Positions 711 to 39,776 of a DNA stretch of 64,000 nucleotides are shown in pieces (positions within the stretch are counted from its first letter, which is position 1; the number at the start of each line of letters is the position of its first letter). Below the pieces are notes generated by a model. That model did no database searches. It had not been told where the DNA came from and saw only the letters and a program-made list of their open reading frames with translations. The DNA is from Candidatus Nomurabacteria bacterium (lineage in GTDB: Bacteria > Patescibacteriota > Saccharimonadia > Saccharimonadales > CAIOMD01), in the NCBI GenBank assembly GCA_020631975.1, contig JACKGO010000001.1, forward strand, positions 131,409 through 195,408, read 5' to 3'. The translations under genes and the position numbers were made by a program.

Positions 711-1919
711 GTGGGAACGCAAAAACTAAAACGCGAACTCGGTTTACCTATTCTTACGCTGTATGGGCTCGGAAATATATTAGGTGCGGGAATATATGTG
801 CTCGTTGGCAAAGTTGCTGGCCAAGCTGGTACAAGCACTACCCTCGCCTTTTTGATTGCTATGAGTATCGCAGCAATAACAGCATTTTCTTACATGGAGC
901 TTTCGGGCAGATATCCAGTAAGTGCGAGTGCTTCTGTATACACGTTTAAGGCATTTGCCAGCAAACGCCTCTCTATGATTATTGGGGTAGCAATGGTACT
1001 AAGTGGTGTTGCCTCGGCGGCGGCACTTTCTAAAGGCTTTGCTGGGTACGTAAATGAACTTATCGCTATACCAGCGGTTGTCGTTAGCATACTACTCCTA
1101 GTGGCGATTGGTTTACTGGCTGTGCGCGGTATCGGCGAATCTGCTAAAGCAGCCGCACTATTTACTATTATTGAAGTCGTTGGTCTTTTAATCATTATAT
1201 ACATTGGCAAAGGTGCTATTGCTAATTATGATTACCATACAATATTGACTATTGATCCTTCCGTCGGTTGGGCCGGAGTAATGAGCGGCGCATTTTTGGC
1301 ATTTTATGCTTTTATTGGCTTTGAAGATATGGTGAATGTGTCTGAAGAAGCCAAGTCACCACGCCGTACGATGCCTCTTGCAGTCTTATTATCTCTGTTG
1401 GGTGCCACGGTACTATATATACTTGTCGTGATTGTCGCCACCACCTTGGTAAGTCCTAGTGAATTGGCTGCTACCAATGCCCCTCTCACTTTAGTGTTTC
1501 AAGCAGGTGGCTATTCTGCGTCAGAGATCATAACAATTATTGGTATGGCTGCAACGGTGAATGGAGTGGTAGTACAGATAGTAATGGGCAGTCGCATGCT
1601 ATATGGTATGGCAAAGCAAAAATGGATAAATCGGCGTTTTGCGAGTGTTCATAGCACATATCAAACGCCAGCTTTTGCTACCTTTGTGGTTGTCGGGCTC
1701 ATGATAATCGGCGTAATAGCCTTGCCTCTTGTCTCGCTCGCATCAGTAACAAGTATGCTCGTTTTAGCTATTTTTGCGACAGTTAATGCTGCCTTGATTG
1801 TGATTAAAAAACAACATCCTAAAAACCCTGGATACATTAGTGTGCCAATACTGCTGCCTTGGTTGGGAGTGATAAGCTGCGCGGGTATACTCGTCTATCA
1901 ACTTAGTACAATATTTTAA
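711..1919 (+). CDS. APC-superfamily amino acid permease
   Basis: 402-aa hydrophobic ORF. N-terminus KLKRELGLPILTLYGLGNILGAGIYVLVG matches the amino-acid permease signature. GTG start as in the ORF track. Confidence 0.8.
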   Translation: MGTQKLKRELGLPILTLYGLGNILGAGIYVLVGKVAGQAGTSTTLAFLIAMSIAAITAFSYMELSGRYPVSASASVYTFKAFASKRLSMIIGVAMVLSGVASAAALSKGFAGYVNELIAIPAVVVSILLLVAIGLLAVRGIGESAKAAALFTIIEVVGLLIIIYIGKGAIANYDYHTILTIDPSVGWAGVMSGAFLAFYAFIGFEDMVNVSEEAKSPRRTMPLAVLLSLLGATVLYILVVIVATTLVSPSELAATNAPLTLVFQAGGYSASEIITIIGMAATVNGVVVQIVMGSRMLYGMAKQKWINRRFASVHSTYQTPAFATFVVVGLMIIGVIALPLVSLASVTSMLVLAIFATVNAALIVIKKQHPKNPGYISVPILLPWLGVISCAGILVYQLSTIF

Positions 1920-1951
1920 TAATTCATTCATAGCATATATAGTGATAGGAT

Positions 1952-2662
1952 ATGAACGCAACCATTTTTGAAGAATTTTTGCAAAAAGTAGATCTTAATA
2001 AATATAGAATTAAGTACCAACCAATTAAGCTTGTAGAAATGGATATGCCACGCAATATACAAGCTTTAGACGCCTTGTATGAAGTGTACTGGACTCAACG
2101 GCGCGTGCTTGGTTTTGAAGATTTTTACGAATACTATAAAAACAGCTGCACTAAAGAAATAGAAGGCTTTAGGCAAAAAACAACAATGTGTTCGGAATGT
2201 TTTTACAGAGGTTTACCAGCCAGAATTTACCGTACGTGGGCAAGCATCATTACCCAGATACACGCTGGCTATGTAGCTGAACAAGTATTTGGGAGCGGTA
2301 GCGTGAGTATGTCAACTGAGCTAGATCACAAAGGTATAGATTTTTCAGCACAGGTAAATGGCACATACTTATATTATCAAGTTAAAAAAGCTACCCACAG
2401 CCGAGAAGTGCGAGTTTCTAAAAAAGTTGATAGCCAAAATATAGATATTATACTCATTGAATACGAAGTTCCTGGAGCCGCAGTCTTTGCAGCACCTTAT
2501 AAACGTGATGGTACGTATAAGGCTGCTTATTCGCGTTTTATACAAAATAAGTCAATCAAACGCTTGCCTAATGGTTTTGTTGTTTTTACTCCCTATATGT
2601 TTGAGCAAAAAAAAGCTGAGCTACTTGCTGGTGGCGGTGCCAGCTATAAAGCCTTCCGCTAA
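1952..2662 (+). CDS. Putative type II restriction endonuclease (PD-(D/E)XK-like), partner of the adjacent methyltransferase
   Basis: 236-aa ORF with no family I recognise. Segment STELDHKGIDFSAQVNGTYLYYQVKK has an E..D..(Q)xK spacing compatible with a PD-(D/E)XK core. It is convergent with the MTase gene and their 3' ends overlap by 42 bp. Confidence 0.4.
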   Translation: MNATIFEEFLQKVDLNKYRIKYQPIKLVEMDMPRNIQALDALYEVYWTQRRVLGFEDFYEYYKNSCTKEIEGFRQKTTMCSECFYRGLPARIYRTWASIITQIHAGYVAEQVFGSGSVSMSTELDHKGIDFSAQVNGTYLYYQVKKATHSREVRVSKKVDSQNIDIILIEYEVPGAAVFAAPYKRDGTYKAAYSRFIQNKSIKRLPNGFVVFTPYMFEQKKAELLAGGGASYKAFR

Positions 2663-4153
2663 TACGGCATATTCAGGATTAAGCTCGTAGCCTATGAAGT
2701 CAAAACCTAGCTGCTTAGCGACATAGCATTCAGAACCAGACCCAACAAATGGCACCAGCACTAAGCCGCCGTCTTTTGGCATTGCAGATAACAATAATCG
2801 TTTAGTAAGTTCTATTGGTTTTTGTGTTGGATGTTTTAGGTAATCATGTTCACGATGTTGTGTAAAAACTTGAGGCGTAAACACTGTGCTGTTGCATGTT
2901 CTGCATATGAACCATCGTTCGCTCATGCCTGCTCCACCTGCAAGTGCTGGTATTTTAATAACATCACGTGGTAATGCTCCAGATTCATGTGCATTATAGG
3001 TGGTAGGCTCTCCCCCGCCTTTGCTGAACCGGCCTTTTGTGTTTTTTCTTACTTTACCGGCAGCACCTTTTAAGAAACCTTCGGTATACGGTTCACGTAC
3101 AGCATCTCTGTTAAATAACGGTTTATTTTTATAGGCGACAATGATAGATTCGTGACTGCGTTGCCAAAAATGTAGTGAGGCGACATTTTTATTTGTGTAG
3201 TGCCATACCAACCACCGCTTAGGTAGTGTGAGCTCTACAGAAATATGTGCGAGTATTTCGCTGAATCCATATATAAACATCGTACCGTGTGGCTTCAGTA
3301 CGCGCTCTGCTTGGAAAAGCCACTCTTTGCACCACGCTATATAATCAGCTAATTCGCGGTTGTCGCTATTATTGCCAAAGTCTTTGCCTATGTTGTATGG
3401 CGGATCTATGAGGACGACGTCACACGAAGCATCTGGTAGTTTAGTCATTTCTTGCACGGCATCCCCAACGATAATTTTATTTTTTTCTATGTTACTAGGC
3501 GTATGTGCTACTGCGGTTTTTTTATTAAGTTGCTTGAGTTTTTTGTGGGGTGCTTTGATCACAGATGCGACCGTGCCTTGAATGCTTAGGCTTTGACTTG
3601 GCAATACATAGATTGGTTCGTACTTATTGTTAGAGGGCTGCAACCGGACACGACCCGGCTCCTGGTAGAATCGCTTTAGCGTTACGTAATCGTTATCTAT
3701 CAAAGCAACGACTCTTTCTCCATTTTTTGGTGTTATGTTTTGTCGCACAATCACAACGTCATTATCATGAATATTATCGTCAACCATACTGCTACCTTTG
3801 ACACGGAGCGCAAATAGGTTTTTGCTGTCTTTTGCTTTTATACTAGACGCGGGTATGGTGAATAATTCTTGTTGGCTTACAGCACGAATCGGCTTACCAG
3901 CAGAAATCTCACCTAGTAACGGAACATGAATATATTGCGTTTCTGTTTCTGGAAAAATACTGCGGGTAGAATATGGACCTTTAGATATCTTTCCTTGTTG
4001 CTGGAGTTTGTTTAGATGGTAATGAATAACAGATGGTGAAGCTATGCGAAATTTAGCTCCAATTTCTTTGTATGATGGGCTGTAGCCTTCTTGTTTATGA
4101 TAGGCTTTAATAAACGCTAAGATATCATCTGTTTTTGTACTCATTACAGACAT
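2621..4153 (-). CDS. LexA-like repressor (wHTH + S24 peptidase) fused to beta-class N6/N4 DNA methyltransferase
   Basis: Start taken at the first ATG (4153); ATG at 4144 is an alternative. Residues 1-200 resemble LexA: wHTH SPSYKEIGAKFRIASPSVIHYHLNKLQQQG, GEISAGKP (Ala85-Gly86), KGSSM (Ser122), VTLKRF (Lys160), IQGTVASVIK. Residues from about 230 form the MTase: DVVLIDPPYN (motif IV), HPTQKP, VPFVGSGSE (motif I). Confidence 0.85.
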   Translation of the reverse strand: MSVMSTKTDDILAFIKAYHKQEGYSPSYKEIGAKFRIASPSVIHYHLNKLQQQGKISKGPYSTRSIFPETETQYIHVPLLGEISAGKPIRAVSQQELFTIPASSIKAKDSKNLFALRVKGSSMVDDNIHDNDVVIVRQNITPKNGERVVALIDNDYVTLKRFYQEPGRVRLQPSNNKYEPIYVLPSQSLSIQGTVASVIKAPHKKLKQLNKKTAVAHTPSNIEKNKIIVGDAVQEMTKLPDASCDVVLIDPPYNIGKDFGNNSDNRELADYIAWCKEWLFQAERVLKPHGTMFIYGFSEILAHISVELTLPKRWLVWHYTNKNVASLHFWQRSHESIIVAYKNKPLFNRDAVREPYTEGFLKGAAGKVRKNTKGRFSKGGGEPTTYNAHESGALPRDVIKIPALAGGAGMSERWFICRTCNSTVFTPQVFTQHREHDYLKHPTQKPIELTKRLLLSAMPKDGGLVLVPFVGSGSECYVAKQLGFDFIGYELNPEYAVLAEGFIAGTATSK

Positions 4154-4180
4154 TATATATAGAAAAAAATTAGAAAACAA
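4152..4180 (-). promoter_or_regulatory. Sigma-70-like promoter of the LexA-MTase gene, possibly giving a leaderless mRNA
   Basis: Minus strand reads TTGTTT (4180-4175), a 17-nt spacer, then TATAAT (4157-4152). The -10 overlaps ATG 4153. ATG 4144 lies about 7 nt downstream of the -10, where transcription would start. Confidence 0.45.
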
Positions 4181-4246
4181 CACGTGCGTACGGTCTAATA
4201 TACGATAACAAAGCAGGCTGTATAAGCAATAGGCTATAATATCATC

Positions 4247-4966: not shown

Positions 4967-6142
4967 ATGATAGTGAAAAAATACATATCTTTAGTAGCAG
5001 CAATAATTGTGCAAATTGCACTTGGTGGAATATATGCATACAGCATTTACGTACCAGAGTTAAAAAGTGATTGGGGTTTTACGGCTGCCCAAACCCAAAT
5101 AGTGTTTGGGCTTACCGTATTTATGTTTACCGTATTTATGATTTACGGTGGCAAGCAGTTAGTTAAAAAAGGCCCAAAAAAGTTAATAATTACCAGTGCT
5201 ATACTATTTGCAACTGGTAATCTGTTGGCTGCCTATAGTGCTGGTAATTACACATTGTTTTTTGTTGGCTACGTGTTATTTATTGCACCAGCTATTGCTT
5301 TTGGCTACGTGAGTGCTGTTTCTACAGGCTTGCTGTGGTTTCCAAAACACAAAGGCTTAGTTACCGGTCTTGCGGTAGCAGGCTATGGTCTGGGTGGTAT
5401 CATTTTAAGTACAGTTGCCCAAGTGCTTATAAGCAGTGATATGACAATACAACAGATATTTGTTTTTGTTGGTTTAGTGTGGGGTGGTGCGATATTGGTT
5501 AGCGGTATAGTTACGAGTACACCACCAGGTTTAATAAAAAAATCATACACTGTAAAGACGGCAACACGAATCAAACGCAATAAAAAAGAATTTGCAGCCC
5601 TGACAATATATTTATTTACTGGCACGATGCCAGGGCTGATGATGATTGGTGCGCTAAAACCATTTGCGCTTGATAGCGGCATTGCTACAGTGACCGCTGC
5701 AGCTGGGGTTGCTGTACTATCATTTGGTAATGGTTTTGGAAGAGTATTATGGGGAGCCATAGCCGACGTTATAAAGCCACGACTTGCGGTTATTATTAAT
5801 ATGATCCTTATAATTTCTAGTATGCTTCTACTGTTTGCTGTTGCCTCTAACCCTTGGTTATATATCCCAGCTAGCTTGTTGTTAGGCTTTAGTTTTGGTG
5901 GTCCACTTGTTCTCGCTCCAGACCAAACTGGGCGAGTATTCGGTGCAAGTAACTTAAGCCAAATATACCCTTGGGCTCTTATCTTTCATGGTATGGCAGC
6001 CGCCGTAGGGGCATCTGTAGCTGGAGTAATGTATCAATATAGCGGGAGTTATACTATGGTTATTGGTGTAGCCGCCATTAGTGCAACAATAGGGCTTATA
6101 TGCTATTACAACTTGGTTAAGTATTCACGCAAATTAGTCTAG
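4967..6142 (+). CDS. MFS transporter (oxalate/formate antiporter-like)
   Basis: 391-aa ORF with about 12 hydrophobic segments. N-terminus IVQIALGGIYAYSIY is typical of OFA-type MFS proteins. Confidence 0.7.
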   Translation: MIVKKYISLVAAIIVQIALGGIYAYSIYVPELKSDWGFTAAQTQIVFGLTVFMFTVFMIYGGKQLVKKGPKKLIITSAILFATGNLLAAYSAGNYTLFFVGYVLFIAPAIAFGYVSAVSTGLLWFPKHKGLVTGLAVAGYGLGGIILSTVAQVLISSDMTIQQIFVFVGLVWGGAILVSGIVTSTPPGLIKKSYTVKTATRIKRNKKEFAALTIYLFTGTMPGLMMIGALKPFALDSGIATVTAAAGVAVLSFGNGFGRVLWGAIADVIKPRLAVIINMILIISSMLLLFAVASNPWLYIPASLLLGFSFGGPLVLAPDQTGRVFGASNLSQIYPWALIFHGMAAAVGASVAGVMYQYSGSYTMVIGVAAISATIGLICYYNLVKYSRKLV

Positions 6143-6255: not shown

Positions 6256-6783
6256 CTAAGGTTTCGACCGACCGCTACTCCTGGTCTTTTTTGTATATTG
6301 CAACATGTTGCGTAACTGATTAATCCTTACAATAAACGTTGTGTACTTTCGCAGTAACTTAGAGTATTTATCGTTTGGAACCATAACATGGAGAAGTTTT
6401 TCTTTTTGCTCTAAGTATTCTATTAAGCAGTAAAAATCACCATCACCAGATACAATGATGGCTTTGTCGTATAGATTGTATACTTTCGCCGCAGCGTACA
6501 ACACGAGTTCGGCGTCTACATTCCCCTTTACCGTCACTACTTCGTCTACAGTATATTCTGTCGTTGGCTTTAATATAAGCTCATAGCCCATTTCATGCAA
6601 ATTTTCATACAATAATTCATTGCCCTCTACCTGACCAATAAATAAATACGCACGTTTGACGTTATATTTATTCTTTAAATACAAACGAAATTTTCTAAAA
6701 TCTAAATCCCACCCAGCACTTTTCACACCGAGATTAAGGTTTTGACTGTCTATAAATGCGTAATTATGGTCCGTACTTGCCAT
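6256..6783 (-). CDS. NYN (LabA/DUF88-like) domain protein, predicted RNase fold
   Basis: YAFIDSQNLNLG, GNVDAELVLYAA and IIVSGDGDFYCLIEYL match the acidic-residue pattern of NYN/PIN-like domains. Confidence 0.7.
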   Translation of the reverse strand: MASTDHNYAFIDSQNLNLGVKSAGWDLDFRKFRLYLKNKYNVKRAYLFIGQVEGNELLYENLHEMGYELILKPTTEYTVDEVVTVKGNVDAELVLYAAAKVYNLYDKAIIVSGDGDFYCLIEYLEQKEKLLHVMVPNDKYSKLLRKYTTFIVRINQLRNMLQYTKKTRSSGRSKP

Positions 6784-6848: not shown

Positions 6849-8378
6849 TCAGGCATCAAATATATCTTCACCTAAATGTTTTTGAAGGCGTATTTTTATA
6901 GATCCTTCGTGCCTCCCTAAAGCTTTGCTTAGTTGCGGTATTGATAGTCCATCGCTAAACTGCGTCACTAGTTTTTTATCGTCAGCCTCTGACCATGGCT
7001 TGTAGGCGTTAGGGTGTGTAATACGCATCTTTGCTAATTTGTCTGCCCAGCTACCTTGTTGTTTCTTGGTAAGTATCTCGGTTTTAAGCGGCTTCGTCTT
7101 ACCCCATTCGTTTATGTGATGCTGGTATTCTTGAATTGCCTGTTTGCTTTTTAAACGGAGTTCTTCATCGAGTTGTTTTGCAACGGGGCTTACTTTAAGC
7201 GCCATGCCATTAATTCCCAGCAATGACAACGTATCAATACTTTTTACGCGCGATAAAGCAACGTAGCCCATACCTTCTACAAATGCTTTGCTAAGATCTA
7301 TAGTTGCGGCATCTAACGTCATGCCTTGGCTTTTGTGGACAGTTATCGCCCATGCCAAACGTAGGGGAATTTGTGTCGCCGTAGCTCTTATTTTATCTCC
7401 ATCTATAAGCTCCCAGGATTCTGGTTTAATAACGATTTTTTTACCACTATTAAGCGCAACTATTGGGTAGTTTGTGGTATCTTCAAAACCAACAACGACG
7501 CCTAAACTTCCATTGACATATTTCTTGTCTGGGCTATTTTTAATACACATAACTTGAGCATTAATTTTTAATGTTAAAGTAGGCATGGCAAGGCAAGACT
7601 TAAGTAGTTGCTCTTTGTACTTTTTGCTGCCAGTTAAGAGCATTTCATATGTAGCTGCTTTGGTGTTAAGGGTCGCGAGGTGCTGTTGATTAATACTGTC
7701 GGTATCTACATTTGTTGTAAGTAGTTTTGTTACAGCTAAGGTTGCATCTAGCGTGGTATTTTGTTTATCTAGTAACTTTGTAAGTTGGCTACGGTTGAGT
7801 ACCCCTGCCCGTATACCATTTAAAATATCAGTGTAAACTTGGTCATCTTTTTGACGATACTGTTCTACAAGATAACACACGCTAAATATACCATCGTGCC
7901 ATAATGAAGATTGTGTTATAAACCCCCCGTGTGGCTCATCTGCACGATTAACGGGTGGTAGTTGATAAAAATCACCACATAAAATAACTTGTAAACCGCC
8001 GAATGGTGCGTCATTTTGGCGGACGTGTTTACAAACAGTATCGATCATTTCTAGACGATAGTCGTGCAGCATGCTGATTTCATCAATTATTAATATGTCC
8101 GTATTTTTAATTATTTTTTTACGACTATCTGGCATTTTTTTTAACATGTCTGGATGCACTTGATGCTTGATACCTATGCCAGCCCATGAATGAATTGTAT
8201 TACCATTCAGATGAGTCGCGGCAAGCCCTGTCGTGGCTGTGACAGAAACTAATTTACCTGAGGCACGGGCATGCCTAATAAAGACATTCAGTGTATGTGT
8301 TTTGCCTGTACCTGCAGCACCGGTAAGAAGTACCGACGCACCAGAATCCATAATCGCGAGTGCTTCTTGTTGTGTCAA
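6849..8378 (-). CDS. PIF1/RecD-like SF1 DNA helicase with C-terminal Myb/SANT-like HTH
   Basis: Walker A LLTGAAGTGKTHTL, Walker B LIIDEISML, GDFYQLPPV and ITVHKSQGMTLD. C-terminus KPWSEADDKKLVTQFSDGLSIPQLSKALGRHEGSIKIRL. Confidence 0.8.
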   Translation of the reverse strand: MTQQEALAIMDSGASVLLTGAAGTGKTHTLNVFIRHARASGKLVSVTATTGLAATHLNGNTIHSWAGIGIKHQVHPDMLKKMPDSRKKIIKNTDILIIDEISMLHDYRLEMIDTVCKHVRQNDAPFGGLQVILCGDFYQLPPVNRADEPHGGFITQSSLWHDGIFSVCYLVEQYRQKDDQVYTDILNGIRAGVLNRSQLTKLLDKQNTTLDATLAVTKLLTTNVDTDSINQQHLATLNTKAATYEMLLTGSKKYKEQLLKSCLAMPTLTLKINAQVMCIKNSPDKKYVNGSLGVVVGFEDTTNYPIVALNSGKKIVIKPESWELIDGDKIRATATQIPLRLAWAITVHKSQGMTLDAATIDLSKAFVEGMGYVALSRVKSIDTLSLLGINGMALKVSPVAKQLDEELRLKSKQAIQEYQHHINEWGKTKPLKTEILTKKQQGSWADKLAKMRITHPNAYKPWSEADDKKLVTQFSDGLSIPQLSKALGRHEGSIKIRLQKHLGEDIFDA

Positions 8379-39689: not shown

Positions 39690-39776
39690 GCCGCAGTGGC
39701 GGAATTGGTAGACGCGCTAGACTCAAAATCTTGTGAGCTTATGCTCGTGCCGGTTCAAGTCCGGCCTGCGGTACCA
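39690..39776 (+). tRNA. tRNA-Leu (anticodon CAA), CCA encoded
   Basis: Hand fold: acceptor GCCGCAG/CTGCGGT, anticodon loop CTCAAAA, long variable arm GAGC/GCTC, T arm GCCGG-TTCAAGT-CCGGC. Close to E. coli tRNA-Leu(CAA). Confidence 0.9.

Follow-up and report, generated by a model that had tools for sequence, protein, structure and literature searches.

A LexA repressor fused to the methyltransferase of a TaqI-type restriction-modification cassette in Saccharibacteria, with predicted autorepression and damage response

A gene on the minus strand of a 64-kb stretch of the contig JACKGO010000001.1 (the whole of this stretch is referred to here as the window) encodes a LexA repressor joined in frame to a DNA methyltransferase (MTase), and it appears to be the modification (M) gene of a mobile type II restriction-modification (R-M) cassette in a Candidatus Saccharibacteria chromosome, the host's GluRS being 100% identical to a protein of an NCBI Saccharibacteria metagenome assembly. 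Based on its sequence and those of its relatives, we propose that this LexA-fused methylase is autorepressed and is derepressed by DNA damage, which would result in restriction alleviation, and we give this reading a probability of about 0.6. Autoregulation of an R-M methylase is a known principle, while the damage-sensing input and the modular, recurrent design appear to be new, as they are undescribed in the literature searched. No description of a LexA-MTase fusion was found in that full-text literature, REBASE and the 2017 Patescibacteria SOS-network study lying outside the search; the 2013 review of R-M regulation (PMC3874152) mentions LexA only for toxin-antitoxin systems, and a 2026 preprint on methyltransferases of the Candidate Phyla Radiation (CPR) makes no mention of LexA, S24, fusions or SOS. 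An initial annotation of the window had stated that it knew of no described R-M system with this architecture, which agrees with this search, but the fusion is not the one-off that this implied, since it represents a large family that is catalogued under misleading names.

The fusion protein and its family

Open reading frame (ORF) analysis of the window gives a single unbroken ORF on the minus strand at 2621..4153, as initially described. The start codon is more likely ATG 4144 than the in-frame ATG 4153, because the family N-terminus (MxTKRQKE) and the 507-residue gene calls in most near-identical cluster members match it, and the predicted product is then of 507 residues (MSTKTDD...) rather than 510; ATG 4153 itself falls within the predicted -10 box of the fusion promoter. 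Residue numbers are those of the 510-residue version, and the features of the gene are as follows.

2621..4144, minus strand: LexA-methyltransferase fusion gene (ORF, three Pfam domains, TIGR00498, family N-terminus)
3962..4150, minus strand: LexA winged-helix DNA-binding domain, residues 2-64 (PF01726 LexA_DNA_bind, 46.7 bits)
4016..4024, minus strand: recognition-helix triplet His44-Tyr45-His46, aligned with E. coli LexA Glu44-Glu45-His46
3569..3922, minus strand: Peptidase_S24 domain, residues 78-195 (PF00717, 98.1 bits)
3896..3901, minus strand: predicted autocleavage bond Ala85-Gly86, in register with E. coli Ala84-Gly85
3788-3790, minus strand: Ser122, in register with E. coli Ser119
3674-3676, minus strand: Lys160, in register with E. 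coli Lys156
3467..3553, minus strand: basic, poorly conserved linker, residues ~201-229 (~30 residues; low conservation, AlphaFold2 (AF2) pLDDT <50 at 203-229)
2657..3421, minus strand: beta-class N6_N4 DNA methyltransferase domain, residues 245-499 (PF01555 N6_N4_Mtase, 126.3 bits)
3395-3406, minus strand: DPPYN motif (DPPY being catalytic), first in beta-class order
2846..2905, minus strand: CxxC...HxxH insertion (Cys417, Cys420, His433, His436), invariant alignment columns in the family
2816-2833, minus strand: HPTQKP motif, after DPPYN
2732-2749, minus strand: FVGSGS motif, binding S-adenosylmethionine, after HPTQKP

The N-terminal part carries the LexA winged helix-turn-helix (wHTH), which aligns without gaps with E. 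coli LexA residues 1-60, followed by an S24 domain with the Ala-Gly bond, Ser and Lys in the LexA register, and the lexA equivalog model NCBIfam TIGR00498 is covered at positions 1-200 of 203 with 156.9 bits, above its cut-off of 110.95. The register was obtained by alignment with E. coli LexA, and the solved LexA chains 3k2z (T. maritima LexA), 1jhh and 3jso match the same span, residues 3-200 of the fusion. The initial annotation was therefore right that residues 1-200 follow LexA block for block, and right in its codons for Ala85-Gly86 (3901-3896), those of Ser122 and Lys160 being 3790-3788 and 3676-3674; the three profiles that it had proposed to run, LexA_DNA_bind, Peptidase_S24 and N6_N4_Mtase, all match, in that order. 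Where the protein departs from LexA is that it is a 507-residue fusion and not, as judged over the 64 kb and the flanks of its relatives, a stand-alone repair-regulon repressor of ~200 residues.

The linker leads into a beta-class MTase in which, as first noted, DPPYN precedes HPTQKP and FVGSGS. PADLOC MTase_II models match the fusion from residue 201 onward only (2.8e-47), and the solved beta-class MTases 8urk, M.RsrI and CcrM match residues 219-501. The DPPY motif, whose link to N6-adenine methylation is established, suggests that this is the modification made. The CxxC...HxxH segment just before HPTQKP is unaligned to any solved beta-class MTase and is poorly modelled by AF2; it is probably a zinc-binding element and perhaps part of target recognition. 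The AF2 model of the whole fusion, built from an alignment of 22 sequences, had a mean pLDDT of 57 with residues 309-412 below 50, and a fold search and a statement on domain packing based on it were dropped because the MTase half was modelled too weakly.

The fusion, which the initial annotation had proposed to look for in other CPR genomes, is recurrent. At least 120 clusters of proteins carry it, and at least 555 stretches of metagenome sequence encode a relative. The 120 clusters that score best are all full-length fusions of 500-511 residues, with a few longer gene calls to 587; they are ~56% identical and come from many independent assemblies, and those with a named source belong to the Patescibacteria/CPR (Falkow-, Kaiser-, Jorgensen-, Gribaldo-, Magasanik- and Parcubacteria). 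Every one of the 80 relatives' stretches kept from the at least 555 spans residues ~2-506, and linker length is conserved in the family. This recurrence decides against the single ORF being an assembly or frameshift artefact that joins a lexA to an MTase gene. Such an artefact has one point in its favour: in the database cluster of the window protein, a Saccharimonadales metagenome-assembled genome (MAG; 617-kb contig) contains a copy, with an identity of at least 90%, in which two ORFs are called, MEZ6330783.1 (S24 peptidase, 150 residues) and MEZ6330782.1 (DNA methyltransferase, 376 residues), which is probably a frameshift in that assembly or a pseudogene and not the native state. With full-length fusions in independent assemblies, 80 loci spanning the junction, a linker of conserved length and the same kind of fusion in other MTase families, we regard the artefact as refuted and its probability as negligible.

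Databases name the fusions either 'transcriptional repressor LexA' or 'site-specific DNA-methyltransferase'. Hundreds of Patescibacteria MAG proteins that bear the first name are R-M methylases, and counting them as LexA distorts reconstructions of SOS regulons. The window protein is an outlier in its LexA domain, which is ~44% identical to the LexA parts of the family and equally to free LexAs, and for its MTase part the identity to the family is 69%.

None of the 120 homologues departs from Ala85, Gly86, Ser122 or Lys160, even though the LexA half is the more rapidly evolving one (median identity 67%, versus 82% in the MTase half), and the cleavage chemistry therefore appears to be under purifying selection. 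These numbers bear on whether the LexA part serves solely for DNA binding and dimerisation, with an S24 domain that never cleaves in vivo and gives no damage response. Simple autoregulators that join an HTH to an MTase are indeed well known (PMC3874152), and variants of the present family exist that have dispensed with the protease. In two Saccharibacteria MAGs (L008, 581-1720; L009, 6001-7125) the entire S24 domain is lost while the wHTH, linker, MTase and matching operator are retained, and in these variants, as in protein P0122, the LexA wHTH joins the MTase through a linker of ~25 residues rich in Pro and basic residues. Their operators are TTTCTA/TTTCGA with a His-Phe-His (HFH) helix in L008, and TTTCGGG with a 10-bp period and a His-Glu-His (HEH) helix in L009. 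Since they keep both HTH and operator, DNA binding at the promoter would be the core function. Pure dimerisation, however, would put no constraint on the scissile bond or the dyad, which are invariant in the 120 homologues and nearly so in a wider set of 65 LexA-domain representatives, fused and free, where Ser and Lys are present in 65/65 and the bond is Ala-Gly in 64/65 and Ser-Gly in 1/65. We thus consider a LexA part without cleavage to be unlikely.

Operator, promoter and cassette

The features of the region upstream of the fusion gene and of the gene that converges with it are the following.

4160..4177, minus strand: putative LexA site, the direct repeat TTTTCTA (4177-4171) and TTTTCTA (4166-4160), period 11 bp
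4152..4180, minus strand: predicted fusion promoter, -35 TTGTTT (4180-4175), 17-bp spacer containing the operator, -10 TATAAT (4157-4152), from family homology
1952..2662, plus strand: TaqI-family type II restriction endonuclease (REase, R) gene, convergent with the fusion (PF09573 RE_TaqI 1.5e-34; PADLOC REase_II 3e-32)
2621..2662, no strand: tail-to-tail coding overlap of M and R, 42 bp, from ORF coordinates

The 64 kb contain a single exact copy of TTTCTA-N5-TTTCTA, which precedes ATG 4153 by 7 nt and ATG 4144 by 16 nt. Comparisons between loci drew on 86 fusion loci, with ~78 loci for covariation and 70 unique relatives for gene overlap. The alignment of the relatives' upstream regions defines a block made up of a TGTGGATAAC motif, a -35 box TTGAYT, the direct repeat TTTCTA-N5-TTTCTA filling the spacer and a -10 box TATAAT/TATACT, the repeat sitting between -35 and -10 in ~78 relatives. 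With this promoter the fusion transcript would start at about ATG 4144 and be leaderless.

The repeat also covaries with the recognition helix of the adjoining gene. Where the helix residue is Phe or Tyr the repeat is TTTC[T/G]A (66/66 non-identical loci), where it is Glu or Gln the repeat is TTTCGG (11/11 loci), and Lys accompanies TTTCAC at one locus, a segregation that is perfect over ~78 loci. The residue in question is Tyr45 in the window, which aligns with E. coli LexA Glu45, a base-contacting residue in the LexA-DNA structure. Because the repeat covaries with the recognition helix and lies within the promoter, the fused LexA most likely binds the direct repeat and represses its own promoter.

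The operator appears to be dedicated rather than global, because no further copies beyond chance were found in the window or in 595 kb of the relatives' loci. One 1-mismatch match lies inside a major facilitator superfamily (MFS) gene (5814-5830) and is within chance, as is a single 1-mismatch match in the window to the host-type SOS box TTCGG-N6-TTCGG. No operator was found upstream of the endonuclease gene (1900-1951). Hence the initial suggestion that the R-M promoters are repressed is supported for the M promoter, by the operator and the helix covariation, and fails for the REase promoter, so that it should read 'M promoter', while the alternative suggestion of tethering the MTase finds no support, as neither the window nor the relatives' flanks hold extra operator copies beyond chance. 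A 1-mismatch operator-like sequence, TTTATAAACNGTTTCTA, recurs in relatives at +1136 from the fusion start on the minus strand within the MTase coding region (n=27, e.g., L026 7130); it was rejected as an operator, as it overlaps conserved codons (E-T-V-Y-K) of the opposite strand and the window lacks it, and it is probably coincidental.

Two further elements were seen in the upstream regions. The first is the DnaA-box-like motif TGTGGATAAC (the reverse complement of TTATCCACA), which lies ~69 nt upstream of the fusion ATG at the upstream edge of the conserved cassette in 67/79 unique upstream regions, versus ~0.01 expected per region. It occurs in relatives L001-L093 and also in L174, L177 and L179, similar motifs flank the promoters of stand-alone CPR lexA genes, and it neither covaries with the LexA helix nor occurs at archaeal MTase-only loci; the window has no clean copy of it, only the degenerate GTTATCGTAT at 4201-4210. 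A DnaA input into lexA-type promoters in CPR is possible. The second is an inverted repeat, TTGACTTT...AAAGTCAA, that brackets the promoters of relatives (L175 1608-1667, and upstream in L014), one arm being the -35 box and the other lying directly before the ATG, and on the bottom strand the latter could be the -35 box of an antisense promoter facing the operator. The window, with its leaderless predicted transcript, does not have this repeat.

That the fusion belongs to an R-M system, as initially claimed, is supported by its RE_TaqI neighbor and by the PADLOC MTase_II and REase_II matches, and the MTase motifs, an adjacent and co-inherited endonuclease and avoidance of the target site are all as expected of type II R-M. 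An RE_TaqI gene follows the fusion in ~78/86 fusion loci, and the tail-to-tail overlap of M and R is found in 68/70 unique relatives, where it is typically 9 bp; a terminator scan of the window gave no terminator-like site at the M/R junction. The most depleted of the 16 4-bp palindromes in the window is TCGA, with 66 occurrences observed and 154 expected (O/E, observed/expected, 0.43), and TCGA is also the lowest of the 16 in 652 kb of the relatives' loci (O/E 0.48). Because the endonuclease is of the TaqI family, TCGA is the probable target of the cassette. GGCC is second most depleted in the window (97 observed, 164 expected, O/E 0.59) and GATC third (0.74), which may point to additional R-M systems of HaeIII- or MboI-like type acting on this lineage.

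The cassette appears to be mobile, because its flanks vary between loci, because M and R without LexA occur in DPANN archaea and because the MTase occurs alone on viral contigs. In DPANN and halobacterial archaea the same MTase is found with 59-64% identity and no LexA, and the same endonuclease stands beside it, full-length in two DPANN loci and as a short partial match in the halobacterial locus. The viral contigs (L094-L173, from IMG/VR, several labelled GVMAG) commonly carry MTase-only homologues (residues ~221-505, 49-59% identical), giant-virus MAGs among them; a phage origin of the fusion was rejected, as these contigs gave no fusion. In relatives a second regulator is often present, with ~35/86 fusion loci matching an HTH_3 controller (C) gene of the L001 type upstream of the REase together with a palindromic C-box (ATAATCCCA-TT-TTGGGATTAT), and at least 5 further fusion loci having a different HTH_3 gene in that position. 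The window has no C gene, as only 32 nt separate the stop codon of a permease gene (1919) from the REase ATG (1952).

The LexA module elsewhere and a mechanism for its use

The LexA part is not confined to this MTase. When 1.8 billion cluster representatives were searched, complete LexA N-termini with 33-44% identity turned up on proteins 430-825 residues long, and among the 150 representatives listed at least 38 are LexA-MTase fusions of other types. The carriers examined include other N6_N4 subfamilies, a gamma-class N6_Mtase with TaqI_C, an Eco57I-type MTase and sequence-permuted N6_N4 enzymes. The unit of promoter, operator and LexA is found on at least four other MTase families, the other endonucleases being AccI-like and MwoI-like. 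The pairing of helix and operator holds in three other MTase families, namely for a gamma-class M.TaqI-like MTase (L174, helix His-Tyr-His (HYH), repeat TTCGA), for an Eco57I-type MTase accompanied by a C gene and an AccI-like REase (L175, HYH, TTTCGA), and for another N6_N4 MTase with a MwoI-like REase (L176, HEH, TTTCGG). It also holds for stand-alone lexA genes of Uhrbacteria and another Patescibacterium, which have an HEH helix and GTTCGG-N5-GTTCGG between -35 and -10. Such free CPR lexA genes have normal chromosomal neighbors, e.g., priA, clpB and uvrA. The family is a natural series of repressors of LexA type and their operators, where two bases of the operator follow a single residue of the repressor (F/Y with TA or GA, E/Q with GG, K with AC), useful for the study of LexA specificity and for orthogonal damage-inducible switches.

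In a crude neighbor-joining tree most of the fused LexA domains group together, apart from most free LexAs, and the unit of promoter, operator and LexA looks to be derived from a CPR chromosomal lexA gene. A broader reading, which we hold tentatively and at slightly less than even odds, is that this module was captured from a CPR lexA and grafted time and again onto many unrelated type II MTases, that the binding specificities are now private pairs and that methylation and, by way of convergent transcription, restriction have been made to respond to damage sensed by RecA; it would cover TaqI-, AccI- and MwoI-associated systems and beta-class, gamma-class and Eco57I-type MTases. Fusions with other MTases have been attributed to Omnitrophota (P0188) and 'Limnocylindrales' (P0122), and if this binning is right the architecture may not be limited to CPR.

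These findings bear on whether the fusion is instead an ordinary SOS master repressor that controls a repair regulon, with the MTase as a passenger or delivered to SOS boxes in order to mark them. The protein does score as a LexA equivalog, NCBI names it accordingly, the window contains no other lexA, and the HEH and HQH (His-Gln-His) cassettes use TTTCGG, near the GTTCGG of free CPR lexA genes, which makes cross-talk with the host regulon possible for that subset. Yet its exact operator occurs once in the window and shows no enrichment elsewhere in the 595 kb of relatives' loci, and the HYH/TTTCTA pair of the window differs from the HEH/GTTCGG of free LexA. The gene moves together with that of a restriction endonuclease, in a cassette between unrelated flanks; archaea have this MTase and REase but no LexA with them, and viral contigs have just the MTase; several MTase families, which differ in their REase partners, have a LexA fused to them; and CPR genomes have free LexA genes beside priA, clpB and uvrA. 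An SOS master repressor is thus improbable.

In the mechanism that we favor, the LexA wHTH, dimerised through the S24 domain, would bind TTTCTA-N5-TTTCTA between the -35 and -10 boxes, and the methylase would so repress its own synthesis. Entry of the cassette into a naive cell would be followed by a burst of methylase and then by a low set-point, as with enzymes of the M.SsoII/M.EcoRII type. Upon DNA damage, as the initial annotation had also supposed, RecA-ssDNA filaments would stimulate self-cleavage at Ala85-Gly86, which would part the DNA-binding domain from the rest of the protein, the S24-methylase body, and so relieve repression of the promoter; self-cleavage triggered by damage is expected because neither the Ala-Gly bond nor the Ser/Lys dyad is disrupted and both are invariant. 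Derepression would supply more methylase and, because M and R overlap tail-to-tail without a terminator, increased M transcription would run antisense into the endonuclease gene and lower restriction, this being the presumed purpose. Extra methylase and lowered restriction would together amount to a type II form of restriction alleviation, shielding unmethylated DNA that arises in repair and recombination from self-restriction. This last step is the least secure of the mechanism, since it depends on how stable and how active the S24-MTase fragment would be.

Several observations weigh against this mechanism. The fragments of E. coli LexA are degraded, and if the same applied here cleavage could lower methylase activity and reverse the proposed outcome. 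Loss of the S24 domain in some Saccharibacteria relatives implies that damage sensing would be dispensable in some lineages. The 64-kb window contains neither a recA nor a second lexA, genes whose presence the initial annotation had wished to see checked. The -35 box of the window, TTGTTT, is weak (3/6 consensus positions), and a generic sigma-70 consensus scan, whose matches did not exceed those in shuffled sequence, does not list the fusion promoter. Counts in the covariation are of loci and not of independent events, yet several MTase families and free LexA genes are covered. Finally, the AF2 model is too poor (mean pLDDT 57) to judge how a C-terminal fusion would affect LexA dimerisation.

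Degradation of the fragments is also the starting point for a suicide or abortive-infection switch, in which damage or phage replication leads to cleavage, the S24-methylase is degraded or loses its activity, methylation is no longer kept up and the cell is killed by the endonuclease. In E. coli, ClpXP and Lon rapidly degrade the products of LexA cleavage, and the I-A-A that precedes the scissile bond in the family resembles the V-A-A recognized by ClpX in E. coli, although this concerns the N-terminal fragment. Moreover, R-M systems behave as addiction modules similar to toxin-antitoxin systems (PMC3874152). A suicide switch is possible but conflicts with simultaneous derepression, as cleavage also frees the M promoter and new full-length methylase should rise, and convergent overlapping transcription would oppose expression of R. 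Host death at each ordinary DNA damage would in addition be costly for a chromosomal cassette present in hundreds of genomes. This outcome of cleavage is accordingly a doubtful one, and we prefer alleviation.

Among the closest known systems are MTases with an N-terminal HTH. M.EcoRII, M.SsoII, M.Ecl18kI, M.MspI and M.ScrFIA bind their own promoters and limit their own synthesis (PMC3874152). The fusion likewise has an N-terminal DNA-binding domain and a putative operator in its own promoter. SsoII-type enzymes, however, methylate cytosine at C5, have a short HTH and lack any proteolytic or damage-sensing element, their M and R genes usually being divergent, with R activated, whereas the fusion is a beta-class DPPY enzyme with convergent, overlapping M and R genes and its regulator is a complete and apparently self-cleaving LexA. 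It thus seems to work like the SsoII-type methylases without being a member of them, and the S24-less L008 and L009 have the SsoII-type architecture. In relation to R-M systems with C proteins (PvuII, BamHI and Esp1396I type), relatives share the HTH_3 gene and C-box upstream of the REase, which the window does not, and the LexA module would be a second, separate layer of control that acts on the M gene.

LexA itself is matched in the full architecture of the first 200 residues and in an operator at the gene's own promoter, as free CPR lexA genes also appear to have; the fusion differs in its 300-residue MTase, in being part of a mobile R-M cassette and in having an operator only at its own promoter in the 64 kb and the flanks of its relatives. 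As in the TaqI system, the endonuclease is of the RE_TaqI family and TCGA is strongly avoided in the host DNA. However, M.TaqI is a gamma-class enzyme with TaqI_C, whereas its counterpart in the window is a beta-class N6_N4 enzyme with a CxxC...HxxH insertion; LexA fused to a true M.TaqI-like MTase exists elsewhere (P0215). RecA-sensitive S24 repressors by which mobile elements read host damage include lambda CI, SetR of SXT and LexA-like repressors of prophages, and in our proposal the cassette would similarly carry its own S24 repressor for this purpose. To our knowledge, they control lysogeny or transfer as stand-alone proteins, and none is covalently joined to an enzyme whose gene it regulates. 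The LexA box of Alphaproteobacteria is the direct repeat GTTC-N7-GTTC (PMC8565304), and the free CPR sequence GTTCGG-N5-GTTCGG reads the same with an 11-bp period, whereas TTTCTA-N5-TTTCTA with His-Tyr-His in the window represents a diverged and apparently private specificity.

The proposed purpose is identical to that of type I restriction alleviation (EcoKI, ClpXP-dependent; PMC11109961), which spares unmodified self DNA arising from repair and recombination after damage. Type I systems achieve this by proteolysis of HsdR on DNA, unlike the derepression of a methylase through LexA self-cleavage that we infer here. Protection of unmethylated sites after repair and recombination is understood only for type I, and a LexA-gated methylase would be a direct type II answer; if true, the mechanism would mean that restriction alleviation has a general, unrecognized equivalent among type II systems and that defense systems can read the SOS signal by a new route. 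Since transformation of Saccharibacteria is now possible (PMC10187176), this proposal is approachable in vivo, and such R-M systems are practical barriers to genetics in these organisms.

Surroundings of the cassette

The endonuclease gene of the window is preceded by a promoter-like sequence, TTAATA-16-TATAGT (1916-1951, plus strand), which ends 8 nt before ATG 1952 and is not above the expectation from shuffled sequence. The REase mRNA may be leaderless like that of M, or alternatively arise by read-through from the amino-acid permease gene at 711..1919. In ~25/60 relatives the REase or C gene is preceded, mostly at a distance of no more than a few hundred bp, by a tRNA gene in the orientation of the REase (e.g., L007 8231-8320, L031 8243-8328, L051 8236-8325 and L086 8227-8316). 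It is often tRNA-Ser, with Leu, Lys, Asn, Glu and Gln also represented, which suggests either insertion of the cassette beside tRNA genes or expression of the REase by read-through. No tRNA gene lies near the cassette in the window, the closest one being at 39690. At a distance of about 2 kb from the cassette, a gene for an NYN-domain protein, a predicted RNase (6256-6783, minus strand), adjoins one for a 509-residue P-loop protein (6849-8378, minus strand) with a putative HTH-like C-terminal tail, and these two genes may be another defense or mobile-element pair.

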